The notes beneath the pieces are model-generated. The model had not been told where the DNA came from. It saw nothing but the letters and a program-made list of their open reading frames with translations, and did not search any database. A DNA stretch of 64,000 bases. Source: Rhynchopus sp. YZ270_cl-10 (Eukaryota). Shown here in pieces: positions 22,236 to 48,700 of the stretch. Within the stretch, counting starts at the first letter, position 1. The number at the start of each line of letters is the position of its first letter. The stretch spans positions 1,054,001-1,118,000 of the forward strand of contig OZ037835.1 of NCBI GenBank assembly GCA_964035575.1. Reading direction: 5' to 3'. The translations under genes and the position numbers were made by a program.

Positions 22236-22622
22236 CCCTATTCCCCTATTCCCCTATTCCCCTATTCCCCTATTCCCCTATTCCCCTATTCCCCTATTCC
22301 CCTATTCCCCTATTCCCCTATTCCCCTATTCCCCTATTCCCCTATTCCCCTATTCCCCTATTCCCCTATTCCCCTATTCCCCTATTCCCCTATTCCCCTA
22401 TTCCCCTATTCCCCTATTCCCCTATTCCCCTATTCCCCTATTCCCCTATTCCCCTATTCCCCTATTCCCCTATTCCCCTATTCCCCTATTCCCCTATTCC
22501 CCTATTCCCCTATTCCCCTATTCCCCTATTCCCCTATTCCCCTATTCCCCTATTCCCCTATTCCCCTATTCCCCTATTCCCCTATTCCCCTATTCCCCTA
22601 TTCCCCTATTCCCCTATTCCCC
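22236..22622. repeat. (TATTCCCC)n microsatellite, ~48 copies
   Basis: Perfect 8-bp tandem repeat about 150 bp downstream of the stop codon of the unit 1 gene. Confidence 0.95.
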
Positions 22623-22770: not shown

Positions 22771-24181
22771 TCATTCTGAGCCTCTCCGTCGCTTGCGGCA
22801 CTGCTCGGGAGATTCGTCTCTGCTACGTTTCGGACGTGCATCAACAAGCTCCTTCAGGTTGCTTTCCTGTACTCGACTCGACACAGGGCTGCTGCAGCCG
22901 GAGAGGTGGATGCTCTTCAACGAAGTGTACTGGTCAGCAGGTAGTGGACCCATGTGCATGACGATCCCGAGTGGGGACAAGTCTAGTTCTGTGAGGCTGC
23001 TGCAGTTGGCAAGAAAGTCATCACCGATGTTATCAACCATGCACAGCGGCGTCAAGTTTAGTTCCATGAGGCTGGTGCAGTCGTTGAGAAAGCAGTCTCC
23101 TATTTGCGCAACATTTTCGAGTGGCGACAAGTCAAGCACTGTGAGGCCGCTGCAGCCGCCAAGAAAATATTCCCCTATTTCTGTAACATTGCTGAGTGGT
23201 GACAGGTCTAGCGCTGTTAGGCTCTCGCAGCCGTCAAGAAAATTTGCATCTATGTGTGTAACATTGCTGAGTGGTGTCAAGTCTAGTTCTGTGAGGCTGG
23301 TGCAGTCCGCAAGAAACCAATGATCGATGTCTGCAACATTGCTAAGTGGGGCCAAGTTTAGTTCTCTAAGGCCCCAGCAGTTGGCAAGAAAGCATTTACG
23401 TAGTTGTGTAAGATTGGCGAGCGATGTCAAGTCTAGTTCTGTGAGGCCGCTGCAGCCGAAAAGAAAGAAACAACGAACTATCGTAACCTTGCTGAGTGGT
23501 GCCAAGTTCAGCACTGTGAGGTTGTTGCAGCCGTTAAGAAAGCAGTCGCCAATGTCTGTGACATTGCTGAGTGGTGACAGGTCTAGCGTTGTGAGGCTGG
23601 TGCAGTACGTAAGAAACTTATCGGCTACTTGTGTAATCCTGCTGAGTGGCGACAGGTCTAATACTGTGAGGCCTGTGCAGCTGGTTAGAAAGTTCTCGCC
23701 AATCCGCGTCACATTGCACAACCCAGAGAGGTTGATACTTGTCAACGTTGAACACCCACCAAGAAAATAGTCACCTATTTCCGTCACACACAAAACAGCA
23801 CTCAGATCAAGTGTTGTTAACGTTGTTTCTCGCAAGAAGCCGTGCGGAATGACAGTCGCAACCTCCGCCTGCAGAAGCAAACACGCCACCTCAGGATCCT
23901 CCACACTCTCCAACCTCTCGGCGGTCAGGTCTGTCTCACCCAACGCATGAAGCTCTGCAATGGCTTGGTACTTCTGCGTCTTCTTCAGGATGATTGTGTC
24001 ACCAGCACTCAGCTGCGCGATGTCCTCTCCTTCCTCCTTCCCTCCGAATCCCATGTGGAAGCTGTCCTCAGCCAACCCTGCTGCAGTCGCCACCTTCTGC
24101 TGCATCGTCTCCGTTGTGTCATCCACACCCACCCTCGATCACGTACAAGTTGTCTGCACAGTCCTTTATGATCAGTTCCAT
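22771..24181 (-). pseudogene. UBL + LRR paralogue 3 (unit 1) with a +1 frameshift near the start
   Basis: Colinear with 25290-26699 but one nucleotide longer: an extra C at ~24133 (CACCCACCCTCG vs CACCCACCTCG). This may be a sequencing error in a homopolymer. Confidence 0.75.
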
Positions 24182-25114
24182 TTACCTTCTTTTGTGTTGC
24201 TCTGTTGTGTGGTGGGGTTGTGGGGTTGGGGCAACGACGTAGAAACCCCTTGGCAGGCAGAGCCGTGCAACGACACCGCACGAAGCCGCAAGACGCACGA
24301 TGGTAGGTGACTGCTTAGACGACCTGGGAGAAGAACACCCACCAGCTGCCACCTGCCTGAGGGCACAGACGGCACAGTGCCATGTCGCGAAAGTGAACCC
24401 ACACACTGAATAAAAACACCACCCAAGAGAGGCACCCCACACCAGCACCAGCGCACCCCACCCCATCCACCCCACGCAAGGAAGAACGCCAAAGGTGCTC
24501 TTGTGCTGCAACCACAGACAAGCTGAGGTGCCAGACAAATGCACGAAAGCACCCCACGGCTGGGCACGTCCCTGTTCCACCTCATATTCTTTGCTGATCT
24601 GTTGGTTCAGTGTAGCTACCATTCAGGCAGTCTTAACTATGCAGAAAACACTCTCAAGAAAGGCCTCTGATCTGGGGCACAGTTGATGCGCTGCAACTAC
24701 CGGGTTTTGGAGACCGTCACTCTGAAACAAATGTTAGACTTGGGTAGACCAACGTTTATTACATCAAACACGGCCAGAAGTGGCCAGAAAACTCGAGTAT
24801 GCAGGTGCACAATATATTTGCTCGATCTCCTTGGTGGAGTAGTTCACTCTTTGAATCATAATATAGACAAAATCTCAAGATGCAGTGTCAGCAAAACTGA
24901 GGGGGAAACACAAGTGTGTCGTGTGTAAGAGAGGGGAGGGATGTTCTGTTAAAAGGGGCCGTTTGTTGTTTTGTTTTGATGACTCTTTGGCTTTGCTGTT
25001 CCTCACACGTACTTACCCAAACACCCCACCTCCCCTCCCCAAATAAAACCCTTCTTCAGGAAAAGAAATCGAAACAAAGAATGCGTGAATCCCCCAATGT
25101 CGTACCCACCCCGA

Positions 25115-25142
25115 CCCTATTCCCCTATTCCCCTATTCCCCC
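25115..25142. repeat. (TATTCCCC)n, only 3 copies
   Basis: Same position in unit 2. Confidence 0.85.
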
Positions 25143-25289: not shown

Positions 25290-26699
25290 TCATTCTGAGC
25301 CTCTCCGTCGCTTGCGGCACTGCTCGGGAGATTCGTCTCTGCTACGTTTCGGACGTGCATCAACAAGCTCCTTCAGGTTGCTTTCCTGTACTCTACTCGA
25401 CACAGCGCTGCTGCAGCCGGAGAGGTGGATGCTCTTCAACGAAGTGTACAGGTCAGCAGGTAGCACACCCATGTGCATGACGATGCCGAGTGGGGATAAA
25501 TCAATCGCTGTGAGGCTGGTGCAGTTGGCAAGAAAGTCATCACCGATGTTATCAACCATGCACAGCGGCGTCAAGTCTAGTTCTGTCAGTCCGCTGCAGC
25601 CGTGAAGAAAACAGTCGCCTATGTCTGTAACATTGCTGAGTGGTGTCAGGTCTAGCGTTGTGAGGCTGGTGCAGCCGTCAAGAAACCAACGATCGATGTG
25701 TGCAAGATTGCTAAGTGACGACAAGTCTAATACTGTGAGGCCGCTGCAGCCATCAAGAAATGAAGTACCGACTTTCGTAACATGTCTAAGTGGTGCCAAG
25801 TTCAGCACTGGGAGGCTCTCGCAGCCGCCAAGAAAGCAATCACCAACTTGTGTAATCCTGCTGAGTGGCGACAAATCTAATGCTGTGAGGCCTGTGCAGT
25901 TGGCAAGAAAGCATTTACGTAGTCGTGTAAGATTGGCGAGCGATGTCAAGTCTAGTTCTGTGAGGTCGCTGCAGCCGCAAAGAAAGAAACAACGAACTAT
26001 CGTAACCCTGCTGAGTGGTGCCAAGTTCAGCACTGTGAGGCCGCTGCAGCCGTTAAGAAAGCAGTCGCCTATGTCTGTGACATTGCTGAGTGGTGACAGG
26101 TCTAGCGTTGTGAGGCTGGGGCAGTCGTGAAGAAACTTATCGGCTACTTGTGTAATCCTGCTGAGTGGCGACAGGTCTAACACTGTGAGGCCTGTGCAGG
26201 TGGTTAGAAAGTAGGCGCCAATCCGCGTCACATTGCACAACCCAGAGAGGTTGATACTTGTCAACGTTGAACACCCACCAAGAAAGTAGTCACCTATTTC
26301 CGTCACACACGAAACAGCACTCAGATCAAGTGTTGTTAACGTTGTGTATTCCAAGAAGCCGTGCGGAATGACAGTCGCAACCTCCGCCTGCAGAAGCAAA
26401 CACGCCACCTCAGGATCCTCCACACTCTCCAGCCTCTCTGCAGTGATATCGGTCTCACCCAACTTATGAAGCTCTGCAATGGCTTGGTACTTCTGCGTTT
26501 TCGTGAGGATGATTGTGTCACCAGCACTCAGCTGCGCGATGTCGTCTCCTTCCTCCTTCCCTCCGAAGCCCATGTGGAAGCTGTCCTCAGCCAACCCTGC
26601 TGCAGTCGCCACCTTCTGCCGCATCTCCTCCGTTGTGTCATCCACACCCACCTCGATCACGTACAAGTTGTCTGCACAGTCCTTGATGGTCAGTTCCAT
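25290..26699 (-). CDS. UBL + LRR paralogue 4 (unit 2; intact, 469 aa)
   Basis: ATG at 26699 (MELTIKDCADN); uninterrupted UBL, linker, LRRs and RPKRSR...RKRRR. It provides the empty-site reference for inserts A and B. Confidence 0.9.
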   Translation of the reverse strand: MELTIKDCADNLYVIEVGVDDTTEEMRQKVATAAGLAEDSFHMGFGGKEEGDDIAQLSAGDTIILTKTQKYQAIAELHKLGETDITAERLESVEDPEVACLLLQAEVATVIPHGFLEYTTLTTLDLSAVSCVTEIGDYFLGGCSTLTSINLSGLCNVTRIGAYFLTTCTGLTVLDLSPLSRITQVADKFLHDCPSLTTLDLSPLSNVTDIGDCFLNGCSGLTVLNLAPLSRVTIVRCFFLCGCSDLTELDLTSLANLTRLRKCFLANCTGLTALDLSPLSRITQVGDCFLGGCESLPVLNLAPLRHVTKVGTSFLDGCSGLTVLDLSSLSNLAHIDRWFLDGCTSLTTLDLTPLSNVTDIGDCFLHGCSGLTELDLTPLCMVDNIGDDFLANCTSLTAIDLSPLGIVMHMGVLPADLYTSLKSIHLSGCSSAVSSRVQESNLKELVDARPKRSRDESPEQCRKRRRGSE

Positions 26700-27855: not shown

Positions 27856-28437
27856 CCCTATTCCCCTATTCCCCTATTCCCCTATTCCCCTATTCCCCTA
27901 TTCCCCTATTCCCCTATTCCCCTATTCCCCTATTCCCCTATTCCCCTATTCCCCTATTCCCCTATTCCCCTATTCCCCTATTCCCCTATTCCCCTATTCC
28001 CCTATTCCCCTATTCCCCTATTCCCCTATTCCCCTATTCCCCTATTCCCCTATTCCCCTATTCCCCTATTCCCCTATTCCCCTATTCCCCTATTCCCCTA
28101 TTCCCCTATTCCCCTATTCCCCTATTCCCCTATTCCCCTATTCCCCTATTCCCCTATTCCCCTATTCCCCTATTCCCCTATTCCCCTATTCCCCTATTCC
28201 CCTATTCCCCTATTCCCCTATTCCCCTATTCCCCTATTCCCCTATTCCCCTATTCCCCTATTCCCCTATTCCCCTATTCCCCTATTCCCCTATTCCCCTA
28301 TTCCCCTATTCCCCTATTCCCCTATTCCCCTATTCCCCTATTCCCCTATTCCCCTATTCCCCTATTCCCCTATTCCCCTATTCCCCTATTCCCCTATTCC
28401 CCTATTCCCCTATTCCCCTATTCCCCTATTCCCCTAT
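27856..28437. repeat. (TATTCCCC)n microsatellite, ~72 copies
   Basis: Perfect 8-bp repeat in unit 3. Confidence 0.95.
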
Positions 28438-30274
28438 CCCCCCTTCTCGTGGCAAGACCGACAAACGAGAGCAAAAACGTAACAACACTTCACAGAAGCT
28501 TCGGACCATGGTACTGCGGGTTGCCTCTGACGCATCGATGCAGATGCGGCTGACTGTGCTCTTGCCGGTTGCAAACGCACCGGCCTTCTATCATTCTGAG
28601 CCTCTCCGTCGCTTGCGGCACTGCTCGGGAGATTCGTCTCTGCTACGTTTCGGACGTGCATCAACAAGCTCCTTCAGGTTGCTTTCCTGTACTCTACTCG
28701 ACACAGGGCTGCTGCAGCCGGAGAGGTGGATGCTCTTCAACGAAGTGTACAGGTGAGCAGGTAGTGGACCCATGTGCATGACGATGCCGAGTGGGGACAA
28801 GTCAAGCACTGTGAGGCTGCTGCAGCTGGCAAGAAAGCCACCACCGATTTTATAAACCATGCACAGCGGCGTCAAGTCTAGTTCTGTGAGGCTGGTGCAG
28901 TCGTTGAGAAAGGAGTCTCCTATTTGCGCAATATTCTCGAGTGGCGACAAGTCTAGTTCTGTGAGGCCGCTGCAGCCCTCAAGAAAGCTGCCGTCTATGT
29001 CTGTGACATTGCTAAGTGGTGTCAGGTCTAGCGTTGTGAGGCTGGTGCATCCCTCAAGAAACCAACGATCGATGTCTGTAACATTGCTGAGTGGTGCCAA
29101 GTTTAGTTCTCTAAGGCCCCAGCAGTTGGCAAGAAAGCATTCGCTTATGTGTCCAAGATTGCTGAGTGGCGACAAGTCTAATACTGTGAGGCCGCTGCAG
29201 CCATCAAGAAATGAACCATCGACTTTCGTAACATGTCTAAGTGGTGCCAAGTTCAGCACTATGAGGCCGATGCAGCCATCAAAAAACGATTCACCAACTT
29301 GTGTAATCCTGCTAAGTGGCGACAAATCTAATGCTGTGAGGCCTGTGCAGTTGGCAAGAAAGTATTCACGTAGTTGTGTAAGATTGGCGAGCGATGTCAA
29401 GTCTAGTTCTGTGAGGCCGCTGCAGCCGTAGAGAAAGAAACCACCAACTACCGTAACCTTGCTGAGTGGTGCCAAGTTCAGCACTGTGAGGCTCTTGCAC
29501 TCGTTAAGAAAGCAGTCGCCTATGTCTGTGACATTGCTGAGTGGTGTCAGGTCTAGCGTTGTGAGGCTGGTGCACTCCTCGAGAAAGCTTCCGGCTACTT
29601 GTGTAATCCTGCTGAGTGGCGACAGGTCTAATACTGTGAGGCCTCTGCAGGTGGTTAGAAAGTTCTCGCCAATCCGCGTCACATTGCACAACCCAGAGAG
29701 GTTGATACTTGTCAACGTTGAACACCCATCAAGAAAATAGTCACCTATTTCCGTCACACACAAAACAGCACTCAGATCAAGTGTTGTTAACGTTGTGTCT
29801 CCCAAGAAGCCATGCGGAATGACAGTCGCAACCTCCGCCTGCAGAAGCAAACACGCCACCTCAGGATCCTCCACACTCTCCAGCCTCTCTGCAAAAATAA
29901 ACGTTTTTAAAAATAGGATGGAGCACCCCGGTCCGAAAAGGAATGCAGCCACCCCTGGCTTCAGGCTCGCGAACCCAGTATTGCAGTAACACTGGGTCTC
30001 ACGGGCCAAAAACCGAACAAAGAAAAGGAAAATGTTTGGGTTCAGCGACAGCGCCAATGGGCTGACGCGACGCTGAACCAACTTAAAATAAAATAAAAAA
30101 ATCTTGTATCAACTTGAAAAAGAAAAGCAATGAACAGCAACAGAGCCATTTGGGCTTACGCGTCGCTAAAGTAACTGAAAAACAATGTTTTAAAAACAAG
30201 AATGTCGTTGACCAAGATTGAAATACACGAAAAAGGTAAAATACTAAGAATTGCCTCATATTCCATGGGCATCG

Positions 30275-31222
30275 TTTCTGATGTTGTAGTTTGTCTGCTG
30301 AGTGATCACGCGCCCCCCCCTACTAGGGAGGTCTTAGGTTCATGCTTCGGCTTGCACGTAAAGAACTACCATGTCGCCGAAGTTAGCGGTCCTCGTATTC
30401 CGTGAGGTCTTTCTGATGGTGTTGTTTGACTGCTGAGTGATCACGCGCCCCCCCTACTAGGGAGGTCTTGGATTCAGGCTTCGGCTTGCACGTAAAAGCT
30501 ACCATGTCGTCGAAGTTAGCGGTCCTCGTATTCCGTGAGGTCTTTCTGATGTTGTAGTTTGTCTGCTGAGTGATCACGCGCCCCCCCTACTAGGGAGGTC
30601 TTAGGTTCAGGCTTCGGCTTACACGTAAAAGCTACCATGTCGTCGAAGTTAGCGGTCCTCGTATTCCATGAGGTCTTTCAGATGTTGTTGTTTGACTGCT
30701 GAGTGATCACGCGCCCCCCCTACTAGGGAGGTCTTAGGTTCAGGCTTCGGCTTACACGTAAAAGCTACCATGTCGTCGAAGTTAGCGGTCCTCGTATTCC
30801 ATGAGGTCTTTCAGATGTTGTTGTTTGACTGCTGAGTGATCACGCGCCCCCCCTGCTAGGGAGGTCTTGGATTCAGGCTTCGGCTTGCACGTAAAAGCTA
30901 CCATGTCGTCGAAGTTAGCGGTCCTCGTATTCCGTGAGGTCTTTCTGATGTTGTAGTTTGTCTGCTGAGTGATCACGCGCCCCCCCTACTAGGGAGGTCT
31001 TAGGTTCAGGCTTCGGCTTGCACGTAAAAAGCTACCATGTCGTCGAAGTTAGCGGTCCTCGTATTCCGTGAGGTCTTTCTGATGTTGTAGTTTGTCTGCT
31101 GAGTGATCACGCGCCCCCCCTACTAGGGAGGTCTTAGGTTCAGGCTTCGGCTTGCACGTAAAAAGCTACCATGTCGTCGAAGTTAGCGGTCCTCGTATTC
31201 CATGAGGCACTTCAGATGTTGT
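30275..31222. repeat. 133-bp tandem repeat, ~7 copies, inside insert A
   Basis: Unit ...CTGCTGAGTGATCACGCGCCCCCCCTACTAGGGAGGTC...; repeated ORF images lie 399 bp (3x133) apart. Confidence 0.9.
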
Positions 31223-31309
31223 TCTTCTTTTTCTTCTTGTTCCGAGTCTTTGCCGCAGTCCTCTGCTTTGCCCGGGGTCACCTCGTGGAGGTGCTCGGTA
31301 AAACCCCGG

Positions 31310-31589
31310 TCTTCAGCCTTTTCGCAGTGATGTCTGTCTCACCCAACGCATGAAGAGCTGCTCTGGCCTCGAACTTCATCGACTTCGTCAACACAATCTT
31401 GTCCCCAGCACTCAGCTGCGTCATGTCCGCTCCTTCGCCCATCGCTTCGCATCCGAAATTCATCACAAAGCCGTCTTCAGGCAGCTCCACTGCAGACGCC
31501 ACCTTCCGCCGCATGTCCGTAGGTGTGTCATCCTCACCCAGCTCGACCACATGCTGCACTCCGTTCCACCCTTCGATAGTCAAATCCAT
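31310..31589 (-). pseudogene. 5' fragment (UBL domain + linker) of a different UBL-LRR paralogue carried by insert A
   Basis: MDLTIEGWNGVQHVVELGEDD...LSAGDKIVLTK...LGETDITAKRLK; family homology stops there. Confidence 0.85.
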
Positions 31590-31613
31590 TTTTTTGTGTT
31601 TCCGCGGTTTGCC

Positions 31614-31652
31614 CAATGAAGTACAGAAACTGTAGCTTTAGAAATCGTTGGT
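31614..31652 (-). other. Complete 39-nt spliced-leader (mini-exon) sequence in an mRNA-type context
   Basis: Minus strand reads ACCAACGATTTCTAAAGCTACAGTTTCTGTACTTCATTG, containing the conserved euglenozoan SL core CAGTTTCTGTACT.ATTG. It is followed by a 24-nt 5' UTR and an ATG, not by the GT of an SL RNA gene. Confidence 0.9.
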
Positions 31653-31734
31653 GGGGAGCCTCTCTGCAGTGATGTCGGTCTCACCCAACTTATGAAGCTC
31701 TGCAATGGCTTCGTACTTCTGCGTCTTCGTCAGG

Positions 31735-33370
31735 GTGGTAGTCCGTTTTAACGGTCTCTGGCAGGCCGGGCCTTCTTTCTGTGGCCTTCCCAACCAAAAG
31801 ACCCCCAAAAAACACAGGTACCTGCTGCGTTTAGTGGCATTTTACCCCAGTCCCTGGAACAGATCGGCAAGCCGACCAGCCCAGGTATGCATGCCAACAC
31901 TACTGGGGGTGCACTGTTCGATAGCATAAAAGAAAAAGTCAAAAAGTCAAAAAGACAAGAAGGTCAAACAAAATAGGTACTTCGAACAGGGCTGACAGGA
32001 GGGGATTCTCACCCGAGGTTCGGTGCCTGTCAGGCTGCGATTAGTGGTTCTGGGTGATTCCCTTCTTCCTAGCCACCGTTACCGCGGTGCCCACACCGTA
32101 AGAGAATGGGGACGGTTCACGACCGTTCGTTCGCGTCAGCAAAAGTAGGGGTCGGAGTCCAGGCCCGAACCGGAAACATTAACCTCCGTTTTTCGAAACA
32201 ATAAAAAGTAAAAATGAAAAAGAAAAATCAACAGCAAGAGCAGTGTTGTTGTAAAAGAAACAGCAGCACCGTCAGCTAACATGTCCACACAATATGGCAG
32301 ACGGCCACACAAAATTCCCCTGATTTGTACAGAGAAAGTTGTAACTTCTTCCTTACAAGTAAGGGAGTACCGGTAGGGAAGGAGTTACAACAAACAGTGA
32401 ACAAACTCAAGTACCAGCCTTTCCGCGTAGCACAGACCCTACATTTGGTAGTTGGTCTGCCCTACTGCCTCTTCTGCACCGTAGCTGAATGCCACGGCGA
32501 CAACTCCTTCATCTCCAACGTACCAAAGCACGTGAAAATAGAACAAAAATAAACACATTGGAAAACAACAGAGCATGTACCTGCAGAGTGCATACACCCT
32601 GAAAGTTTAACCTCTTCCTTCTAGCACAGACGTTGGTCTGCCCTACTGCCTCTTCTGCACCGTAGCTGAATGCCACGGCGACAACTTGTACCCACCTGCG
32701 AATGAATGCTCGCAGATCCCTTCTTCTACTAACGTATAAAAAACGTAAAAACAGACCAAAAACTACAACATGCCACACTGAATTAACGACAGAGCACGCA
32801 CCTGCAGATCCACAGATGTTTCACTACGGTGTACACAGCCTGAGGTTAAACACATAACACAAGAATTCTACTACGGCAAAAAGATGAAAACTGAACTGAA
32901 CTGAACAAAACTACAACACACCACACTGAATACACAAGAGCACGTACCTGCTGATCCACAGTTGTTTCACATACAGTGTACGCACCAACAAAGCAACACA
33001 ACGTTCCCATGCGGTCAAACGACAACACAGGAACAGCAACAATATTCCGTCACCAGTAGAGACACCGGCAACGCTTCCTTCTTGTACCTGGGATCCCCTC
33101 ATCGGCATCAACACACTCCCAGTCACCGCACAGGTAACAGATCCTTGAAACCCCTCCGAAGGGGTTTGCGTAGCCTACATAAGCTGGTGATCTGCCCGAA
33201 ATTGACTGTGATGTTGTATTAATAACCAGGGTTCCCACATCGGCTTGTTCCTCCTCCGGTCCCGAGCGAATCCATCATTGGAGAGGCGGCCGCCCACGCT
33301 GACTCAGTACCATGCGAACACGGCGTCCAGGGGCCCCACTTGGCGGTTGGTCAGACGTTAATTGCCCCCT
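31735..33370 (-). mobile_element. Insert B copy 1: non-coding SINE/SIDER-like retroelement with a 5' HDV-like ribozyme
   Basis: 18-bp TSD TTCTGCGTCTTCGTCAGG at 31717-31734 and 33371-33388. No long ORF; two internal ~190-200 bp repeats; several hairpins. Confidence 0.82.
33296..33369 (-). ncRNA. Putative HDV-like self-cleaving ribozyme at the 5' end of insert B
   Basis: Folded by eye: P1 GGGGGC/GCCCCU with G1.U wobble; P3 CCA/UGG; CC in L3 pairing with the GG after P1 (P1.1); P4 GCCGUG-UUCG-CAUGGU; J4/2 CUGA; P2 ACGUCUGA/UCAGCGU. Confidence 0.65.
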
Positions 33371-34047
33371 TTCTGCGTCTTCGTCAGGATGATTGTGTCA
33401 CCAGCACTCAGCTGCGTCATGTCCTCTCCTTCCTCCTTCCCTCCGAAGCCCATGTGGAAGCTGTCCTCAGCCAACCCTGCTGCAGACGCCACCTTCTGCC
33501 GCATCTCCTCCGTTGTGTCATCCACACCCACCTCGATCACGTACAAGTTGTCTGCACAGTCCTTGATGGTCAGTTCCATTTGCCTTCTTTTGTGTTGCTC
33601 TGTTGTGTGGTGGGGTTGTGGTTTTGGGGCAACGACGTAGAAACCCCTTGGCAGGCAGAGCCGTGCAACGACACCGCACGAAGCCGTCTCAGCCAATATT
33701 TAGCGTACACATGCATGCCGCATACGTCACGAAGTATGGCAGACAGGCACACAAGCAAGCAGAACGCTCCCACCGTCACCACTCACAGCACGCGAGTGTC
33801 CCCATCCCCACCAGAAGCAAGAGTGTCCCCAACCAGCCCTGAGCACGACGTCCTCTCCCGACCACACACATGATTTGGCCCACCCACAAAGCTGCTCATC
33901 GTTGCACGCATCACGCAGACGCACGATGGTAGGTGACTGCTTAGACGACCTGGGAGAAGAACACCCACCAGCTGCCACCTGCATGAGGGCACAGACGGCA
34001 CAGTGCCATGTCGCGAAAGTGAACCCACACACTGAATAAAAACACCA

Positions 34048-34265
34048 CACGACGGTGAAGTATAGTACATTACAAGTGAAGTTACTAGTAACGTTACAAG
34101 TGAAAAACCGTTACAAGTGAGTTACAAGTGGGATATATCAATTACAGGCAAAAGCAGGTGGTAACTGGTGGGTTACAAGTGGGTTACAAGTCAGTTACAT
34201 GTAACAAAAGTTACATGTAACTCACTTGTAACTCCACTTGTAACACCCGTTACTTCACCGTCGTG
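34048..34265. mobile_element. 218-bp MITE, CACTA/CMC-like
   Basis: 15-bp TIR CACGACGGTGAAGTA / TACTTCACCGTCGTG, 2-bp CA TSD (empty site at 43085-43105), subterminal TTACAAGTG repeats. Confidence 0.85.
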
Positions 34266-34303
34266 CACCCAAGATAGGCACCCCACCCCACCCACCCCAC
34301 CCA

Positions 34304-37300
34304 CACGACGGTGAAGTAACGGGTGTTACAAGTGGAGTTACAAGTGAGTTACATGTAACTTTTGTTACATGTAACATTACAAGTGCCACTTGTAATATAC
34401 ACGTATATTACATGTACCCATGTATATATTACACTGTACGCGCAGCAAATCCCTCATCCACACTCACGCAGAACCCATATTTCTCAAAAAAAAAAGACAC
34501 GTTTTTAACTATGTCCGTACTTCCAGCAAGCGGACTGCGCCAGACACACGGTTGTCACCACAGGCAAAGAAAGGAAAGTCGTCTGACCTCGAGGCAGATA
34601 ATCGAATCCAGAGCATGTTTGTGTCGTTCGCGGTCCTGGCCCTGTGGGAGGACAGACGCGCCCCTACCCTCAGTCTTCTCATTTTGTGGCTGGTGGGTAG
34701 GAGGGGGACCAGAAGAATGCACCGAGGTCCCAGGTCCTTGAACTGGACCAAGACACAGGCGGGCAAGCTCCGTCGGCGCAAGACGCCCTGCAAACGTCCG
34801 CCCTCTCCGGTCGCAGTCCCATGTCTTCGCAGGATAAGGGTTGCCGATGCTGTGGGAGGAGCGTGAATCCGGTCGTGTTGATAGCCCCAGGCTGTCAAAA
34901 CATAAAAAACACGGACCTAAAAGACGCGGAGGTTTTCAAGCGTCCAACGGTAGGCATAGCCCTATGTGAAGGTCACTACGAGACGATCCGGCCCACAGCG
35001 GAGGAGGGGGAAGATGTGTCGACGGCTTTGTTGAGGATCGCAGTCAGAGCGACGCTGAACCCCTTGGACCTGGATCTGCGCCCCATGTCGACCTCGAACC
35101 CCTCGGGGGAAGCTTTTGAGCTATGCTTGGGTAAGCCAGAGGAGGACTTCTGCTTCTGCCCGGTGGAGGGGTGCAAAAGGGGAATCATGGCACAGACGGA
35201 CGTGAAGTCTTTCACCCGCGATCAGCTTCTGGGGCACTTGAGACGCCACAAAGACAAGGAAGAGTAGGTGCCCGAACACATTCTGTCTTTCTTCGGCTAC
35301 AAAAGATGCGTCAGTGAGGACTGTTTTGCCCTGCTGAAGAAATCACAGAGCGCATGCAGGAGCTGTACACACCTCATGAAAAAGGTGCCCCTGCCAGGGA
35401 TCGAGGAACGCCTCACGCATGCCCTGAGGGAATGCCCACACTGGACATGATTGGCACAACCAGGTTCAAGCTGAAGGGGACTCACCAGACCTTCTCCATC
35501 GCTACACCCTTATCTTTCAGAGGGTTCTGCAGGAGATCCTGCAGCATCAGGATAAGAGGGCTTGGACCAAGTTTGCTGTGTTCTTCACCGTCCTGCACAG
35601 GGACCGTGGGGGTGGATGAGCTGGGTCACAAGATGCCAAACGGAGGTACTACAACTCCTGGAGACAGGACCTGAACTGGTGGGATGCGGGTGAGTGGTCG
35701 AATATGTGGGAGGAGCTCTGTCTGAAGTGCAAGCACGGCCGAAGTGGACGCCGGGTGACACGTTGGAGGCTCGCCAGAAACGTTCCCGCGTGAAAACGGC
35801 TGCAGGACTCCCTGGCCAAGCGCTGACCGCCCTCACCAGCGACGGCCTCGCCCCTCACGGACCGGAAACGTTGGCTAAACTGAAAGGTAAGCACCCAGCC
35901 TTTGATCCCCCTGTCGCCGCGTCCACTGGCCCCCTGAGGAACCCGTCCGGCCCGGCCGACTTCATCCCCAAGGAGGTCATAGCCGCGATCAGCAGCATGC
36001 CACGTGCCACTGCAGGAGGCCCCTCGAACCTCACCGGGTCCCTCCTTCGCACCCTTTGCAACCAGAAGCACACTCCTGGCACGCTCGCAGCCCTGTCGGC
36101 AGTGTTGTCTAGTCTGGCTCAAGGTAAAGCACACAAGGAGGTCGCGCCGTTCTTCGCAGGGGCCAAGCTGGTGGCCCTCAGGAAGGTGTCAAAAGGCAAA
36201 CCGGACGACGTGCGCCCGATTGCAGTTGGGGGTGTGATGCACCGTTTGGTTGGGAAGATCCTGGCGAACAGGCTGCGGAAGCGAGCGGCAGAAATTTTCC
36301 GCAAGGGGAACCAGGTGGGCGTGTCGACTACTTGGCGCCGAGGCAGCCACGACGATGGTTGCGCAGTACGCGAGGAGAAATGCTGGACAGGACAAGGTGA
36401 TTCTGAAGGTGGACTATCACAACGCTTTTAACACTGTTGATAGATCCACTTTCCTTGATGCGGCAGAGAAGCACATCCCTGAGATCTCACCCTGGGTGCG
36501 ATGGTGCTGCTCCGGCCGCACCTCCCTCTTCTATGGGGAAGACATCCTGCAGTCCCAGACAGGCGTGCAGCAAGGCGACCCCTTGGCCCTGTTCTGTTCT
36601 CTCTTGCGATTGCGGACATGACGGAACAGCTGAAGGCGAACAAAGCCCTTGATGGATCCATTTGGTACCTGGACGATGGATGCATCCGTGGCTCTCCTGA
36701 GGCTGTTAAGCATATGATGCGCTGGTGGTATCGAGCAAACGGGTTGGCCTGAAGGTGAACAATTCGAAGTGCGAGTTGGTGACACTCCGTGGCGACTCTG
36801 CAGCGGATTTGCGTGACAGGGGTTTTGACATCTGTGACGAGTCTGGTTCCCCTGGCTTCACCCTCCACCAGAAGAACTTCGATTTCCTGGGCGTCCCCAT
36901 CGGCACGGCGGAACACTGTAGGGAGTACATGCAGCGCAAGCATGACGAGTCGAAGCGGAACCTCGAGGCTCTTAAAGACCTCAAGGACTCACAGCATGCG
37001 TTCTACATCTTGCGCTTCTGCGAGGGGTTCTGCAAGATGGTATTCTACATGCGTGTAATATCATGTGTGGACCTAGGGGAGGACTACCTTCGGGACTTTG
37101 ACGCGGAGGTGGACAAGTGTTTGGCGGCGGTCCTGCACGATGAGCATGGGAAGATTTCGGAGCGGGCCCGCCTGCAGGCAGTGCTCCCCATCGCCATCGG
37201 AGGCTTAGGCGTCGCACTGCGGATCACTGGCCGGCAGCGGTCCTAGCGTCGCAGGCGGGGTGCCTCAAACTTGCCACGCAGTTGGACCCCTATTTTGAAT

Positions 37301-37563
37301 GGGACCAAACCAGGTGGAAGAATGCATTCGTCGTTTAAAAAAAAATTCTGTCGTACTGATCCGGGTACATGTAACTGGCTCCTCCCCGCAGACCGTACTG
37401 TGTTAAATACCACCCAGCCCCACCAAACACCACCAATTTCAGGCAGAATCAGGTGGTGGTACATGTAATATACATGTAACGTTACAAGTGGCACTTGTAA
37501 CGGTTTTTCACTTGTAACGTTACAAGTAACTTCACTTGTAATGCACTGTACTTCACCGTCGTG
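34304..37563. mobile_element. 3.26-kb TIR element of the same CACTA/CMC-like family carrying a retrotransposon fragment
   Basis: Same TIRs at 34304-34318 and 37549-37563, CA TSD, TTACAAGTG/CACTTGTAA subterminal arrays. Inverted relative to the adjacent MITE; no transposase ORF. Confidence 0.85.
34821..37245 (+). pseudogene. Decayed CRE/SLACS-like non-LTR retrotransposon ORF (C2H2 zinc finger + reverse transcriptase, 3'-truncated)
   Basis: CPVEGC...LLGHLRRH zinc finger and an in-frame stop at 35265-35267. RT motifs DVRPIAVG..HRLVGK, QVGV, LKVDYHNAFNTVDR, GVQQGDPLGPVLFSLAI, WYLDDG, GLKVNNSKCE and FLGVPIG span frameshifts near 36330, 36585 and 36720. Confidence 0.88.
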
Positions 37564-38207
37564 CACCCCAGCAAGAACGCCAAGGTACTCTCGTGCTGCA
37601 ACCACAGACAAGCTGAGGTGCCAGACAAATGCACGAAAGCACCCCACGGCTGGGCACGTCCCTGTTCTCCCTCATATTCTTTGCTGATCTGTTGGTTCAG
37701 TGTAGCTACCATTCAGGCAGTCTTCACTATGCAGAAAACACTCTCAAGAAAGGCCTCTGATCTGGGGCACAGTTGATGCGCTGCAACTACCAGGTTTTGG
37801 AGACCGTCACTCTGAAACAAATGTTAGACTTGGGTAGACAAACGTTTATTACATCAAACCTGGCCAGAAGTGGCCAGAAAACTCGAGTGTGCAGGTGCAC
37901 AATATATTTGCTCGATCTCCTTGGTGCAGTAGTTCACTCTTTGAATCATAATATAGACAAATCTCATGATGCAGTGTCAGCAAAACTGTGAGGGGGAAAT
38001 ACATGTGTGTCGTGTGGAAGCGAGGGGGAGGGATGTTCTGTTAAAAGGAGCCGTTTGTTGTTTTGCTTTGATGACTCTTTGGCTTTGCTGTTCTTCACAC
38101 TGTACTTACCCAAACACCCCACCTCCCCTCCCCAAACAAAACCCTTCTTCAGGAAAAGAAATCGAAACAAAGAATGCGTGAATCCCCCAATGTCGTACCC
38201 ACCCCGA

Positions 38208-39045
38208 CCCTATTCCCCTATTCCCCTATTCCCCTATTCCCCTATTCCCCTATTCCCCTATTCCCCTATTCCCCTATTCCCCTATTCCCCTATTCCCCTA
38301 TTCCCCTATTCCCCTATTCCCCTATTCCCCTATTCCCCTATTCCCCTATTCCCCTATTCCCCTATTCCCCTATTCCCCTATTCCCCTATTCCCCTATTCC
38401 CCTATTCCCCTATTCCCCTATTCCCCTATTCCCCTATTCCCCTATTCCCCTATTCCCCTATTCCCCTATTCCCCTATTCCCCTATTCCCCTATTCCCCTA
38501 TTCCCCTATTCCCCTATTCCCCTATTCCCCTATTCCCCTATTCCCCTATTCCCCTATTCCCCTATTCCCCTATTCCCCTATTCCCCTATTCCCCTATTCC
38601 CCTATTCCCCTATTCCCCTATTCCCCTATTCCCCTATTCCCCTATTCCCCTATTCCCCTATTCCCCTATTCCCCTATTCCCCTATTCCCCTATTCCCCTA
38701 TTCCCCTATTCCCCTATTCCCCTATTCCCCTATTCCCCTATTCCCCTATTCCCCTATTCCCCTATTCCCCTATTCCCCTATTCCCCTATTCCCCTATTCC
38801 CCTATTCCCCTATTCCCCTATTCCCCTATTCCCCTATTCCCCTATTCCCCTATTCCCCTATTCCCCTATTCCCCTATTCCCCTATTCCCCTATTCCCCTA
38901 TTCCCCTATTCCCCTATTCCCCTATTCCCCTATTCCCCTATTCCCCTATTCCCCTATTCCCCTATTCCCCTATTCCCCTATTCCCCTATTCCCCTATTCC
39001 CCTATTCCCCTATTCCCCTATTCCCCTATTCCCCTATTCCCCTAT
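38208..39045. repeat. (TATTCCCC)n microsatellite, ~105 copies
   Basis: Perfect 8-bp repeat in unit 4. Confidence 0.95.
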
Positions 39046-40564
39046 CCCCCCTTCTCGTGGCAAGACCGACAAACGAGAGCAAAAACGTAACAACACTTCA
39101 CAGAAGCTTCGGACCATGGTACTGCGGGTTGCCTCTGACGCATCGATGCAGATGCGGCTGACTGTGCTCTTGCCGGTTGCAAACGCACCGGCCTTCTATC
39201 ATTCTGAGCCTCTCCGTCGCTTGCGGCACTGCTCGGGAGATTCGTCTCTGCTACGTTTCGGACGTGCATCAACAAGCTCCTTCAGGTTGCTTTCCTGTAC
39301 TCTACTCGACACAGGGCTGCTGCAGCCGGAGAGGTGGATGCTCTTCAACGAAGTGTACAGGTGAGCAGGTAGTGGACCCATGTGCATGACGATGCCGAGT
39401 GGGGACAAGTCAAGCACTGTGAGGCTGCTGCAGCTGGCAAGAAAGCCACCACCGATTTTATAAACCATGCACAGCGGCGTCAAGTCTAGTTCTGTGAGGC
39501 TGGTGCAGTCGTTGAGAAAGGAGTCTCCTATTTGCGCAATATTCTCGAGTGGCGACAAGTCTAGTTCTGTGAGGCCGCTGCAGCCCTCAAGAAAGCTGCC
39601 GTCTATGTCTGTGACATTGCTAAGTGGTGTCAGGTCTAGCGTTGTGAGGCTGGTGCATCCCTCAAGAAACCAACGATCGATGTCTGTAACATTGCTGAGT
39701 GGTGCCAAGTTTAGTTCTCTAAGGCCCCAGCAGTTGGCAAGAAAGCATTCGCTTATGTGTCCAAGATTGCTGAGTGGCGACAAGTCTAATACTGTGAGGC
39801 CGCTGCAGCCATCAAGAAATGAACCATCGACTTTCGTAACATGTCTAAGTGGTGCCAAGTCCAGCACTGTGAGGCTCTCGCAGCCGTCACAAAAGGATTC
39901 ACCAACTTGTGTAATCCTGCTGAGTGGCGACAAATCTAATGCTGTGAGGCCTGTGCAGTTGGCAAGAAAGTATTGACGTAGTCGTGTAAGATTGGCGAGC
40001 GATGTCAAGTCTAGTTCTGTGAGGCCGCTGCAGCCATTAAGAAAGCAACTACCAACTATCGTAACCATGCTGAGTGGTGCCAAGTTCAGCACTGTGAGGC
40101 CGCTGCAGCCGTTAAGAAAACAGTCGCCTATGTCTGTGACATTGCTGAGTGGTGTCAGGTCTAGCGTTGTGAGGCTGGTGCACTCCTCGAGAAAGCTTCC
40201 GGCTACTTGTGTAATCCTGCTGAGTGGCGACAGGTCTAATACTGTGAGGCCTGTGCCGGTAAGAAAGCTCTCGCCAATCCGCGTCACATTGCACAACCCA
40301 GAGAGGTTGATACTTGTCAACGTTGAACACCCATCAAGAAAATAGTCACCTATTTCCGTCACACACAAAACAGCACTCAGATCAAGTGTTGTTAACGTTG
40401 TGTCTCCCAAGAAGCCATGCGGAATGACAGTCGCAACCTCCGCCTGCAGAAGCAAACACGCCACCTCAGGATCCTCCACACTCTCCAGCCTCTCTGCAGT
40501 GATGTCGGTCTCACCCAACTTATGAAGCTCTGCAATGGCTTGGTACTTCTGCGTCTTCGTCAGG

Positions 40565-42419
40565 TAGGGGTCCGTTTTAGGTCTCTGGCAGGCCGGGCCT
40601 TCTTTCTGTGGCCTTCCCAACCAAAAGACCCCCAAAAAACACAGGTACCTGCTGCGTTTAATGGCACTTTACCCCAGTCCCTGGAACAGATCGGCAAGCC
40701 GACCAGCCCAGGTATGCATGCCAACACTACTGGGGGTGCACTGTTCGATAGCATAAAAGAAAAGTCAAAAAGTCAAAAAGACAAGAAGGTCAAACAAAAT
40801 AGGTACTTCGAACAGGGCTGACAGGAGGGGATTCTCACCCGAGGTTCGGTGCCTGTCAGGCTGCGATTAGTGGTTCTGGGTGATTCCCTTCTTCCTAGCC
40901 ACCGTTACCGCGTTGCCCGCACCGTAAGAGAATGGGGACGGTTCACGACCGTTCGTACGCGTCAGTAAAAGTAGGGGTCGGAGTCCAGGCCCGAACCGGA
41001 AACATTAACCTCCGTTTTTCGAAACATTAAAAAGTAAAAATGAAAAAGAAAAATCAACAGCAAGAGCAGTGTTGTTGTAAAAGAAACAGCAGCACCGTCA
41101 GCTAACATGTCCACACAATATGGCAGACGGCCACACAAAATTCCCCTGATTTGTACAGAGAAAGTTGTAACTTCTTCCTTACAAGTAAGGGAGTGCCGGC
41201 AGGGAAGGAGTTACAACAAACAGTGAACAAACTCAAGTACCAGCCTTTCCGCGTAGCACAGACCCTACATTTGGTAGTTGGTCTGCCCTACTGCCTCATC
41301 TGCACCGTAGCTGGACGCCACGGCGACAACTCCTTCATCTATCAACGTACCAAAGCACGTGAAAATAGAACAAAAATAAACACAATGGAAAAACAGCAGA
41401 GCATGGACCTGCAGATCCACAGTTGTTTCACGTACAGTGCATACACCCTGAAAGCTTAACCTCTTCCTTCTAGCACAGACGTTGGTCTGCCCTACTGCCT
41501 CTTCTGCACCGTAGCTGAGCCACGGCGACAACTCCTTCATCTATCAACGTACCAAAGCACGTGAAAATAGAACAAAAATAAACACATTGGAAAAACAGCA
41601 GAGCATGTACCTGCAGATCCACAGTTGTTTCACGTACAATGCATACACCCTGAAAGTTTAACCTCTTCCTTCTAGCACAGACGTTGGTCTGCCCTACTAC
41701 TTCTTCTGCACCGTAGCTGAATGCCACGGCGACAACTTGTACCCACCTGCGAATGAATGTTCGCAGATCCCTTCTTCTACTAACGTATAAAAACGTAAAA
41801 ACAGACCAAAAACTACAACATGCCACACTGAATTAACGACAGAGCACGCACCTGCAGATCCACAGATGTTTCACTACGGTGTACACAGCCTGAGGTTAAA
41901 CACATAACACAAGAATTCTACTACGGCAAAAAGATGAAAACTGAACTGAACTGAACAAAACTACAACACACCACACTGAATACACAAGAGCACGTACCTG
42001 CTGATCCACAGTTGTTTCACATACAGTGTACGCACCAACAAAGCAACAAAACGTTCCCATGCGGTCAAACGACAACACAGGAACAGCAACAATATTCCGT
42101 CACCAGTAGAGACACCGGCAACGCTTCCTTCTTGTACCTGGGATCCCCTCATCGGCATCAACACACTCCCAGTCACCGCACAGGTAACAGATCCTTGAAA
42201 CCCCTCCGAAGGGGTTTGCGTAGCCTACATAAGCTGGTGATCTGCCCGAAATTGACTGTGATGTTGTGTTAATAACCAGGGTTCCCACATCGGCTTGTTC
42301 CTCCTCCGGTCCCGAGCGAATCCATCATTGGAGAGGCGGCCGCCCACGCTGACTCAGTACCATGCGAACACGGCGTCCAGGGGCCCCACTTGGCGGTTGG
42401 TCAGACGTTAATTGCCCCC
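40565..42419 (-). mobile_element. Insert B copy 2
   Basis: TSD TTCTGCGTCTTCGTCAGG at 40547-40564 and 42420-42437. Near-identical to copy 1 but with three internal ~200-bp repeats instead of two. Confidence 0.82.
42346..42419 (-). ncRNA. Putative HDV-like ribozyme (copy 2)
   Basis: Sequence identical to 33296-33369; the first G directly abuts the TSD. Confidence 0.65.
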
Positions 42420-43521
42420 TTCTGCGTCTTCGTCAGGATGATTGTGTCACCAGCACTCAGCTGCGTCATGTCCTCTCCTTCCTCCTTCCCTCCGAAGCCC
42501 ATGTGGAAGCTGTCCTCAGCCAACCCTGCTGCAGTCGCCACCTTCTGCCGCATCTCCTCCGTTGTGTCATCCACACCCACCTCGATCACGTACAAGTTGT
42601 CTGCACAGTCCTTGATGGTCAGTTCCATTTGTCTTCTTTTGTGTTGCTCTGTTGTGTGGTGGGGTTGTGGGGTTGGGGCAACGACGTAGAAACCCCTTGG
42701 CAGGCAGAGCCGTGCAACGACACCGCACGAAGCCGTCTCAGCCAATGTTTAGCGTACACATACATGCCGCATACGTCACGAAGTATGGCAGACAGGCACA
42801 CAAGCAAGCAGAGCGCTCCCACCGTCACCACTCACAGCACGCGAGTGTCCCCATCCCCACCAGAAGCAAGAGTGTCCCCAACCAGCCCTGAGCACGACGT
42901 CCTCTCCCGACCACACACACGCTTTGGCCCACCCACAAAGCTGCTCATCATTGCACGCATCACGCAGACGCACGATGGTAGGTGACTGCTTAGACGACCT
43001 GGGAGAAGAACACCCACCAGCTGCCATCTGCCTGAGGGCACAGACGGCACAGTGCCATGTCGCGAAAGTTAACCCACCACTGAATAAAAACACCACCCAA
43101 GATAGGCACCCCACCCCACCCACCCCAGCAGGTGCTCTCGTGCTGCAACCACAGACAAGCTGAGGTGCCAGACATGCACGAAAGCACCCCATGGCTGGGC
43201 ACGTCCCTGTTCTCCCTCATATTCTTTGCTGATCTGTTGGTTCAGTGTAGCTACCATTCAGGCAGTCTTCACTATGCAGAAAACACTCTCAAGAAAGGTT
43301 ACATGCGACCACGTGTGACTTGTCACACCTGTGCGCAAAAAATTGCAAAACCCGGAATGCGAATCGCAAAAATTCGCACTGCGAATTTTTCGCACTGTTT
43401 TTTCCGATTTTTCCTGGTTTACGAATTTCGTAGCAGAATACTACCCTGGATCACCGCATTTAAACCCATTTAAACATACAATGCAACGAGGCAGAGTCGG
43501 CCTCGCCAAGGCCTGAAAATA

Positions 43522-45767: not shown

Positions 45768-48700
45768 CCCCACCCCATCATCCTTCAGCATGCAGACAAC
45801 ACTGCCTACTCCCCATCCCATCATCCTTCAGCATGCAGACAACACTGCCTACTCCCCATCCCATCATCCTTCAGCATGCAGACAACACTGCCTACTCCCC
45901 ATCCCATCATCCTTCAGCATGCAGACAACACTGTCTACTCCCCATCCCATCATCCTTCAGCATACAGACAACACTGCCTACTCCCCATCCCATCATCCTT
46001 CAGCATACAGACAACACTGCCTACTCCCCATCCCATCATCCTTCAGCATGCAGACAACACTGCCTACTCCCCATCCCATCATCCTTCAGCATACAGACAA
46101 CACTGCCTACTCCCCATCCCATCATCCTTCAGCATGCAGACAACACTGTCTACTCCCCATCCCATCATCCTTCAGCATGCAGACAACACTGTCTACTCCC
46201 CATCCCATCATCCTTCAGCATACAGACAACACTGCCTACTCCCCATCCCATCATCCTTCAGCATACAGACAACACTGCCTACTCCCCATCCCATCATCCT
46301 TCAGCATACAGACAACGCTGCCTACTCCCCATCCCATCATCCTTCAGCATGCAGACAACACTGCCTACTCCCCATCCCATCATCCTTCAGCATACAGACA
46401 ACACTGCCTACTCCCATCATCCTTCAGCATACAGACAACACTGTCTACTCCCCATCCCATCATCCTTCAGCATGCAGACAACACTGCCTACTCCCCATCC
46501 CATCATCCTTCAGCATGCAGACAACACTGCCTACTCCCCATCCCATCATCCTTCAGCATGCAGACAACACTGCCTACTCCCCATCCCATCATCCTTCAGC
46601 ATACAGACAACACTGCCTACTCCCCATCCCATCATCCTTCAGCATGCAGACAACACTGTCTACTCCCCATCCCATCATCCTTCAGCATACAGACAACACT
46701 GCCTACTCCCCATCCCATCATCCTTCAGCATACAGACAACGCTGCCTACTCCCCATCCCATCATCCTTCAGCATGCAGACAACACTGCCTACTCCCCATC
46801 CCATCATCCTTCAGCATACAGACAACACTGTCTACTCCCCATCCCATCATCCTTCAGCATACAGACAACACTGCCTACTCCCCATCCCATCATCCTTCAG
46901 CATACAGACAACACTGCCTACTCCCCATCCCATCATCCTTCAGCATGCAGACAACACTGCCTACTCCCCATCCCATCATCCTTCAGCATACAGACAACGC
47001 TGCCTACTCCCCATCCCATCATCCTTCAGCATGCAGACAACACTGTCTACTCCCCATCCCATCATCCTTCAGCATACAGACAACACTGCCTACTCCCCAT
47101 CCCATCATCCTTCAGCATACAGACAACACTGTCTACTCCCCATCCCATCATCCTTCAGCATGCAGACAACACTGTCTACTCCCCATCCCATCATCCTTCA
47201 GCATGCAGACAACACTGCCTACTCCCCATCCCATCATCCTTCAGCATACAGACAACACTGCCTACTCCCCATCCCATCATCCTTCAGCATACAGACAACA
47301 CTGCCTACTCCCCATCCCATCATCCTTCAGCATGCAGACAACACTGTCTACTCCCCATCCCATCATCCTTCAGCATACAGACAACACTGCCTACTCCCCA
47401 TCCCATCATCCTTCAGCATACAGACAACGCTGCCTACTCCCCATCCCATCATCCTTCAGCATACAGACAACACTGCCTACTCCCCATCCCATCATCCTTC
47501 AGCATACAGACAACACTGCCTACTCCCCATCCCATCATCCTTCAGCATGCAGACAACACTGTCTACTCCCCATCCCATCATCCTTCAGCATACAGACAAC
47601 ACTGCCTACTCCCCACCCCATCATCCTTCAGCATACAGACAACACTGTCTACTCCCCACCCCATCATCCTTCAGCATGCAGACAACACTGTCTACTCCCC
47701 ATCCCATCATCCTTCAGCATACAGACAACACTGCCTACTCCCCATCCCATCATCCTTCAGCATACAGACAACACTGTCTACTCCCCATCCCATCATCCTT
47801 CAGCATACAGACAACACTGCCTACTCCCCACCCCATCATCCTTCAGCATGCAGACAACACTGTCTACTCCCCATCCCATCATCCTTCAGCATGCAGACAA
47901 CACTGCCTACTCCCCATCCCATCATCCTTCAGCATACAGACAACACTGCCTACTCCCCATCCCATCATCCTTCAGCATACAGACAACACTGCCTACTCCC
48001 CATCCCATCATCCTTCAGCATGCAGACAACACTGTCTACTCCCCATCCCATCATCCTTCAGCATACAGACAACACTGCCTACTCCCCATCCCATCATCCT
48101 TCAGCATACAGACAACACTGCCTACTCCCCATCCCATCATCCTTCAGCATACAGACAACACTGCCTACTCCCCATCCCATCATCCTTCAGCATGCAGACA
48201 ACACTGTCTACTCCCCATCCCATCATCCTTCAGCATACAGACAACACTGCCTACTCCCCATCCCATCATCCTTCAGCATACAGACAACGCTGCCTACTCC
48301 CCATCCCATCATCCTTCAGCATGCAGACAACACTGCCTACTCCCCATCCCATCATCCTTCAGCATACAGACAACACTGTCTACTCCCCATCCCATCATCC
48401 TTCAGCATACAGACAACGCTGCCTACTCCCCATCCCATCATCCTTCAGCATGCAGACAACACTGCCTACTCCCCATCCCATCATCCTTCAGCATACAGAC
48501 AACACTGCCTACTCCCATCATCCTTCAGCATGCAGACAACACTGTCTACTCCCCATCCCATCATCCTTCAGCATGCAGACAACACTGACTACTCCCCATC
48601 CCATCATCCTTCAGCATAGAGACAACACTGCCTACTCCCCATCCCATCATCCTTCAGCATGCAGACAACACTGCCTACTCCCCATCCCATCATCCTTCAG

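Follow-up and report, generated by a model that had tools for sequence, protein, structure and literature searches.

The 64-kb stretch of the Rhynchopus sp. YZ270_cl-10 genome analysed here (GenBank assembly GCA_964035575.1, contig OZ037835.1, positions 1,054,001 to 1,118,000), referred to as the window, contains six genes of a family in which a ubiquitin-like (UBL) header is followed by a linker and a region of leucine-rich repeats (LRRs). The linker is empty in four of these genes and interrupted in the other two by inserts that are flanked by direct repeats. All six genes are on the minus strand, as is every gene and insert at the locus, and the inserts read in the sense of their host genes. 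According to Pfam, the host proteins consist of BspA-type LRRs and a weak ubiquitin match (PF00240). Unit 2 (25290..26699), an intact gene in which both insertion sites are empty, serves as the comparator, and paralogue U2 matches the LRR_5 family with an E-value of 4e-24. The open reading frames (ORFs) and sequence of unit 3 place the UBL header exon, whose paralogues match PF00240 weakly, at 33389..33579 and the LRR-coding 3′ part of the interrupted gene at 28591..29881. In unit 4 the UBL header exon occupies 42438..42628, and the linker and LRR part, with an empty site A (40487-40498), lie at 39199..40545. Unit 1 (22771-24182), which carries no insert, is probably a pseudogene with an indel of one base in the exon coding for its UBL. 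An 8-bp microsatellite in 3 to 105 copies is present in the 3′ region of all tandem units (22236-22622, 25115-25141, 27856-28442 and 38208-39050).

Two insertion sites, A and B, can be distinguished within the linker. At site A of unit 3, insert A (29894..31656, 1763 bp) is flanked by the two copies of a 12-bp target-site duplication (downstream copy 29882..29893, upstream copy 31657..31668). A linker segment of 48 bp (31669..31716) separates this repeat from the 18-bp duplication of site B (31717..31734 and 33371..33388), which encloses the unit-3 copy of insert B (31735..33370, 1636 bp); the 3′ junctions of the two elements are 66 bp apart. In unit 4, a longer copy of insert B (40565..42418, 1854 bp) is bounded by a 19-bp duplication (40546..40564 and 42419..42437). 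The duplications were checked at the DNA level for these three window inserts only. Apart from a UBL fragment within insert A, BLASTN detected no similarity between A and B. The locus was therefore described correctly by the initial annotation, which had reported two unrelated, duplication-flanked inserts about 50 bp apart, B in units 3 and 4 and A in unit 3, all in gene sense. The motif GGTGA(C/G)AC(A/C) is found 14-17 bases upstream of both sites, as are 13 of the 18 window matches to a slightly looser pattern; being a post hoc observation, it offers only a lead towards a possible target signal.

Insert A is a composite. Read in the sense of the gene, it begins with CCCC (31653-31656), followed by a 39-nt spliced-leader (SL) exon (31614..31652) of a type that we take to be diplonemid, and a 24-nt 5′ untranslated region (UTR; 31590..31613) that, when translated in the same frame, agrees with the residues preceding the start of a predicted protein of the family, P0176. 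The next piece (31308..31589) codes for a UBL and linker of 94 codons, and all 94 residues are identical to the N-terminus of P0176, which is encoded by an intact gene running on into LRRs. The remainder is the A core. The leader is identical at 36 positions to a published euglenozoan SL (PMC3795323). It occurs once in the window; in a contig of run X7 the 39-mer is followed by a GT donor, the arrangement expected of an SL RNA gene. Since insert A starts with a spliced leader, it has passed through a trans-spliced RNA, and the junction of SL exon and host 5′ UTR in genomic DNA is that of an SL-capped retrocopy. The paralogue fragment ends after codon 94, the codon at which other carriers of site-A inserts are broken, in keeping with the earlier suggestion that it had been broken at the same site. 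In insert A the 5′ end of a host mRNA and an element core meet at the canonical site; the way of joining is inferred below. Contigs of run X1 that align at 31613-31652 include a joint with two spliced leaders separated by seven bases, possibly reflecting tandem or recycled leaders such as those of dinoflagellates.

The A core opens with a predicted ribozyme resembling that of hepatitis delta virus (HDV; 31240..31307), the first base of which directly adjoins the last host codon. It is followed by a 133-bp tandem repeat of 7.1 copies (30275..31222) and by a 3′ region (29894..30274) with two predicted hairpins and a T-rich run at its end, and no poly(A). The ribozyme is modelled as a nested double pseudoknot of P1, P1.1, P2, P3 and P4 with a catalytic C in J4/2. 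Against Rfam family RF02682 it scores 28.2 bits, with E-values of 0.02 (3.7 kb searched) and 0.00075; this is less than the family's gathering score, 44, and no Rfam family reaches its own anywhere in the window. With a strict HDV descriptor, the A core was the sole match in 64 kb, and three shuffled sequences gave none. Two further observations concern site A: a loose end in run X2 at 40483 has a ribozyme-like start and suggests a further family there, and a 1373-base contig in runs X2 and X5 departs from the gene at 40497, where the site-A duplication has its edge.

Insert B is non-coding, with no long ORF, internal repeats of about 200 bp and no poly(A); its 3′ terminus is a short, variable, C-rich end, so that neither A nor B has a poly(A) or simple-repeat tail. 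The two copies differ by 23 substitutions over 1629 aligned bases, in repeat number and at both junctions, including the 3′ terminal 20 nt. Because the unit-3 type of 3′ end recurs in another paralogue, P0277, the two window copies belong to different subfamilies. A single insertion shared by units 3 and 4 was considered and rejected, as it fits the overall divergence but neither the junctions (5 changes in ~21 nt, p ~4e-5) nor P0277. An atypical HDV-like fold, with a P3 of only 2-3 bp, is likely at the 5′ end of B, being predicted at 33299..33369 in unit 3 and at 42349..42419 in unit 4, where it begins on the last base of the duplication. The relaxed descriptor used for this prediction matches the window three times, in the A core and at the 5′ terminal base of the two B copies, and its counts in four shuffled sequences were 0, 0, 1 and 1. 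The initial annotation mentioned neither these ribozyme-like heads nor the spliced leader of insert A.

When a paralogue is broken, its predicted protein runs on into the inserted DNA, so that such proteins can be used as a census of insertions. Starting from the first 130 residues, 418 relatives with lengths of 257-819 residues were found, and the census set, which includes cluster look-ups and a profile-free HMMER search, comprises 356 fetched predicted proteins. Several element carriers are on the same contig as the window's own proteins. Among 38 short relatives, 23 are broken at the same two codons: 11 at site A, 31 codons past the LSAGD motif, and 12 at site B, 8-9 codons past it (the break points of P0125, P0142 and P0155, on which the local aligner ran on, were placed by inspection). 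This corresponds to a binomial p of ~3e-14 for 6 of 60 codons when the proteins are treated as independent, which recent duplicates are not, and bears out the enrichment in the linker that the initial annotation had proposed to look for. In the full set, site A holds the A core in six proteins and a third family, C, in 24, of which 21 are full-headed and three are 5′-truncated, each at a different point. Site B holds the 5′ end of B in nine proteins, a truncated B in one (P0267) and the 3′ end of B in three, together with the 3′ end of another family, E, in eight; E shares with B the last few codons' worth of sequence. Six proteins have an element at both sites, and two regular-expression matches on polyubiquitin were excluded from these counts. 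Precise 3′ junctions combined with variable 5′ truncation, a feature of target-primed reverse transcription, are seen at the protein junctions. The idea of a single family of site-preferring retroelements has to be modified accordingly: the recurrent hits in the linker stand, and they are due to several families at two sites. A metagenome scan with the linker pattern gave no matches. Three family members (P0282, P0283 and P0297) have B-box-type zinc fingers ahead of the UBL-LRR part.

At site B, the census also revealed a reverse transcriptase (RT). The UBL header of P0256 is broken at this site and continues in the same frame into some 1050 residues that include an RT domain (RVT_1, E 7e-20) with YADD and a CCHC finger, and P0275, broken at the same site, continues into an ORF with an OTU protease. 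Fourteen other site-B tails were compared with these ORFs; six were followed up, and P0295 was added. Six tails correspond to the P0256 ORF read out of frame on the sense strand, from about residues 467, 652, 885, 910 and 938 (twice) onwards, and one corresponds in this way to the P0275 ORF. Their scores are 16.7-53.5, P0155 being the weakest case; with 40 shuffles for each, the maxima were 11.6-14.8. Seven of the 14 had no ORF match and one was B itself. P0256 and the tails starting at five other points together represent one long interspersed nuclear element (LINE) whose copies at site B begin at six different points. The nearest neighbours of P0256 in the atlas are RVT_1 clusters, one of them named after Tx1, and comparison with PDB structures scores L1 ORF2p and R2 alike; a metagenome scan for P0256 returned 71 pattern matches and no confirmed relative. 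Residues 270-640 of P0275 gave no usable atlas match. We infer that P0275, P0256 and family E are parts of one element. An autonomous RT element had been sought for both inserts; a candidate was found for site B and none for site A. Neither P0256 nor P0275 matched insert A or B in tblastn, and the tail of C matched none of the three ORFs.

The initial annotation had drawn an analogy with elements that encode a restriction-like endonuclease (RLE), such as CRE/SLACS and R2. The RLE signature (RH..PD..D) behind the CCHC finger is absent from P0256 and present in the control P0161, a CRE-like RT found with 26 members among the fetched proteins, so that the RLE comparison is unsupported at site B; the comparison with the ingi elements of trypanosome retrotransposon hot spot (RHS) genes fits better. 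None of the 14 site-B tails matches P0161 clearly above its shuffles. Pfam recognizes RVT_1 only in P0256, which is a 5′-truncated copy of the LINE; its endonuclease presumably lies in the missing part and would be of the apurinic/apyrimidinic (APE) type. A decayed CRE-like RT within the window (35694-37323) was rejected as the mobilizer of A and B, since it is located inside a terminal-inverted-repeat element and has no DNA in common with either insert. That element, of 3.26 kb (34304-37563), shares its terminal inverted repeats (CAC...GTG), with an apparent 2-bp CA duplication, with a 218-bp miniature inverted-repeat transposable element (34048-34265), and its RT is 58% identical to P0161 over 87 residues. 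In two other proteins, P0285 and P0254, the UBL header continues in frame, at site B or close to it, into an unrelated region, which in the former has a P-loop-like sequence recognized by eye and in the latter a repeated domain; both are candidate header swaps.

Whether these insertions were acquired independently can be judged from the relationships of their carriers. In the first set, UBL identities range over 54-98% among B carriers, 59-97% among C carriers and 65-79% among A carriers, and the nearest relative of a carrier is often an intact gene, up to 100% identical. The hypothesis that the carriers of each family form one clade was rejected in approximately unbiased (AU) tests for B (p-AU 5e-48), C (3e-5) and A (8e-6); these tests used 47 of 156 rows. 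The tree of 64 columns is poorly resolved, with 7 of 131 branches starred and 11 short proteins of unclear class left out. The three residues before C occur in seven forms that follow the subfamily up to the junction, and such subfamily-specific residues would not be preserved by crossing-over in the linker. As the carriers are not one clade and their flanks follow the subfamily, one ancestral insertion followed by duplication is refuted, and with it one half of the alternative against which the initial annotation was to be judged, namely that the linker insertions all go back to single events and segmental duplication.

The linker thus contains two sites with target-site duplications, both occupied recurrently in divergent paralogues and in the sense orientation, one of them by an RT ORF and the other by an SL-capped insert. 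With a probability of about 0.8, it has been broken at two fixed points by several unrelated elements, through many independent insertions by target-primed reverse transcription at sequence-preferred sites. A number of points weigh against this interpretation. The protein census was assembled through the UBL and linker and is therefore blind to copies elsewhere, and its proteins all appear to derive from the window's assembly, some having no recorded source. The target is not strictly conserved, since LTKT, LSTT and VKKS all follow the E end; because the target bases differ between paralogues, recognition is not strict. No endonuclease domain was seen, and a separate donor gene combining the P0176 UBL with the A core is absent among the fetched proteins. 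The relaxed HDV descriptor was loosened after the sequence of B had been seen, and Rfam gave no match at E ≤ 10 for the 5′ end of either B copy, whose fold is atypical. A loose end of two contigs in run X2 has a B-like 3′ region with another continuation. Finally, P0157 and P0295 have the same truncation point, with UBLs that are only 48% identical, so that some copying of existing inserts has probably occurred, unless they represent a truncated subfamily.

Several of these points would be expected if the inserts belonged to genome-wide families of LINEs and short interspersed nuclear elements (SINEs) with a loose consensus target like that of L1Tc, which the linker happens to match twice; insertions would still be independent, and there would be no dedicated niche. 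This explanation, which we consider rather unlikely, draws on the variable target bases, on the B-like end with a different flank, on the ascertainment of a search that started from the UBL gene family, and on the merely relative site specificity of L1Tc and ingi (PMC5814959). It is opposed by the contigs at the junctions of B: high-depth B contigs enter the linker in runs X2, X5 and X6, the dominant B 3′ contig extends three bases into it in X2 and X5, and in the low-depth run X6 single contigs cross both the 3′ and the 5′ junctions of B into the gene. No element tail devoid of a linker was found among 223 proteins, a biased set. Ratios of contig depth disagreed from one run to another, and no copy numbers were derived from them.

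It is improbable that the hot spot is mostly an artefact of recombination, in which a few founding insertions were spread by unequal crossing-over or gene conversion in the linker. The genes form a tandem array with near-identical units (no differences between units 3 and 4 in 600 positions of the LRR 3′ part), the truncation point common to P0157 and P0295 fits spread by conversion, and crossing-over upstream of the insertion site has been proposed for RHS pseudogenes (PMC7563717). However, the six distinct 5′ truncations of a single LINE at site B and the three of family C at site A would each require an event of their own, the flanks are subfamily-specific to the last codon, each site is used by two families, and the recurrence of the unit-3 type of B end in P0277 assigns the window copies of B to different subfamilies. 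A fragile linker, in which RNA copies are patched into breaks without an element endonuclease, would accommodate the diversity of the inserted sequences, the host mRNA 5′ end among them, and the endonuclease domain's not having been seen, yet is highly improbable: the junction codons do not vary, the duplications differ little in length, the 5′ ends coincide with the base at which the ribozyme is predicted to cleave, the 3′ junctions are precise and the orientation is always sense.

Under recurrent target-primed reverse transcription, an element-encoded endonuclease would cut the linker with a stagger of about 18-19 bp. A canonical junction at site A would be expected to yield 19 bp too; the SL-capped insert has 12 bp and four extra Cs instead. 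The LINE, with ORF2 in P0256 and probably ORF1 in P0275, would be the autonomous user of site B and may mobilize B through a 3′ terminus that the two would share. The elements would be transcribed with the host gene and then freed by the 5′ HDV-like ribozyme; such release from a host co-transcript has been described for L1Tc and for the short internally deleted elements (SIDEs) of R2 (PMC5814959, PMC4035085, PMC3414825). For insert A, the 5′ end of a trans-spliced host mRNA may have been copied together with the A core, either because ribozyme cleavage was missed or by a template jump. It would stem from 5′ transduction out of an A-bearing P0176 allele, or from a template jump onto its 5′ cleavage product; the fetched proteins included no such allele.

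The UBL-LRR family is likely to be a shared landing strip for mobile elements, as the ribosomal RNA genes are in insects. A more far-reaching proposal, which we advance tentatively, is that a community of sequence-targeting retrotransposons has its obligate niche in this fast-evolving protein gene family, in the manner of R1 and R2. Such elements would borrow host transcription and free themselves by ribozymes, and, because they land directly behind the UBL header, they would move SL-capped headers from paralogue to paralogue and create translatable UBL-RT and UBL-ORF1 fusions. The shuffling of UBL and LRR modules that had been suggested for the locus is borne out only to the extent of one moved UBL header and predicted in-frame fusions.

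Other features of the window include a 43-bp satellite of 182 copies (45768-53564), whose flanking repeat has copies upstream of UBL-LRR and ankyrin genes as well, and a gene with DUF4116 repeats (19245-21611) with an N-terminus that looks UBL-like by eye and was not confirmed by Pfam.

The system behaves like the RHS genes, with a two-site, multi-family layout that recalls R1 and R2 in rDNA, and the host is not an RHS gene: an RHS domain with an ATP/GTP-binding motif was not found, and the Pfam matches of the host proteins are to ubiquitin-like and LRR families only. As with RHS genes and their ingi/RIME and L1Tc/NARTc elements (PMC7563717, PMC5814959, PMC4035085), the target is a euglenozoan multigene family with a conserved N-terminal region, in which retroelements recurrently enter a fixed place in the 5′ coding region and leave truncated pseudogenes; both systems have autonomous and non-autonomous partners, here proposed, and an HDV-like ribozyme, here predicted, at the first base of the element. 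Unlike in RHS, the UBL-LRR host has no RHS nucleoside triphosphatase (NTPase), there are two sites and not one, the element families are several and unrelated, the duplications at site B are 18-19 bp, and A and B have no poly(A) tail. With R1, R2 and the SIDEs of 28S rDNA (PMC3414825), the system shares two sites, some 60 bp from each other within a multicopy gene, that are used by different elements, as well as non-autonomous elements with a (predicted) ribozyme at their head and a (proposed) release from the host co-transcript; template jumps of R2-type elements in vivo place cellular RNA at the 5′ end, which may be compared with insert A. By contrast, the target is a divergent protein-coding family with variable target bases, not an RNA gene, and A and B are not established as deletion derivatives of any autonomous element.

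CRE, SLACS and CZAR are likewise sequence-specific euglenozoan non-LTR (lacking long terminal repeats) elements with duplications of variable size (PMC12278014); CRE, however, inserts into SL RNA genes and has a poly(A) 3′ end, and the site-B RT has no RLE motif. Relict spliced leaders in the genome also mark retroposed mRNAs in dinoflagellates (PMC5585692), the difference being that the SL-capped piece of insert A continues at a fixed site into an element core and has landed in the same site of a paralogue. The Crinkler/RHS (CR) proteins resemble the family in layout, with a ubiquitin-like N-terminal header followed by a conserved motif seen as a recombination hot spot for C-terminal swaps (PMC5289972); they differ in that their C-terminal parts are NTPase or restriction endonuclease domains and not LRRs, and here the break points are insertion sites.

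Sequence-specific non-LTR elements are known to target RNA genes, transposons, microsatellites and telomeres (PMC4640811), and RHS is the case of a protein-gene target found in the literature searched. That literature, which covers few subscription papers, yielded no description of the present system, nor any paper that combined diplonemids with non-LTR elements and ribozymes, or with LRRs, ubiquitin-like proteins and gene families; in the Diplonema papillatum genome report, many LINE and SLACS-like ORFs are noted and a rigorous element analysis is deferred (PMC10161547). The UBL-LRR genes offer naturally varied targets on which the site choice of such endonucleases can be studied, along with new candidate site-directed reverse transcriptase systems and ribozymes. 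For the organism, the elements provide a direct route by which a large LRR repertoire can be broken and reshuffled, and a two-site, multi-family version of the hot spot in a second euglenozoan lineage would show that protein gene families can repeatedly act as safe havens for retroelements.

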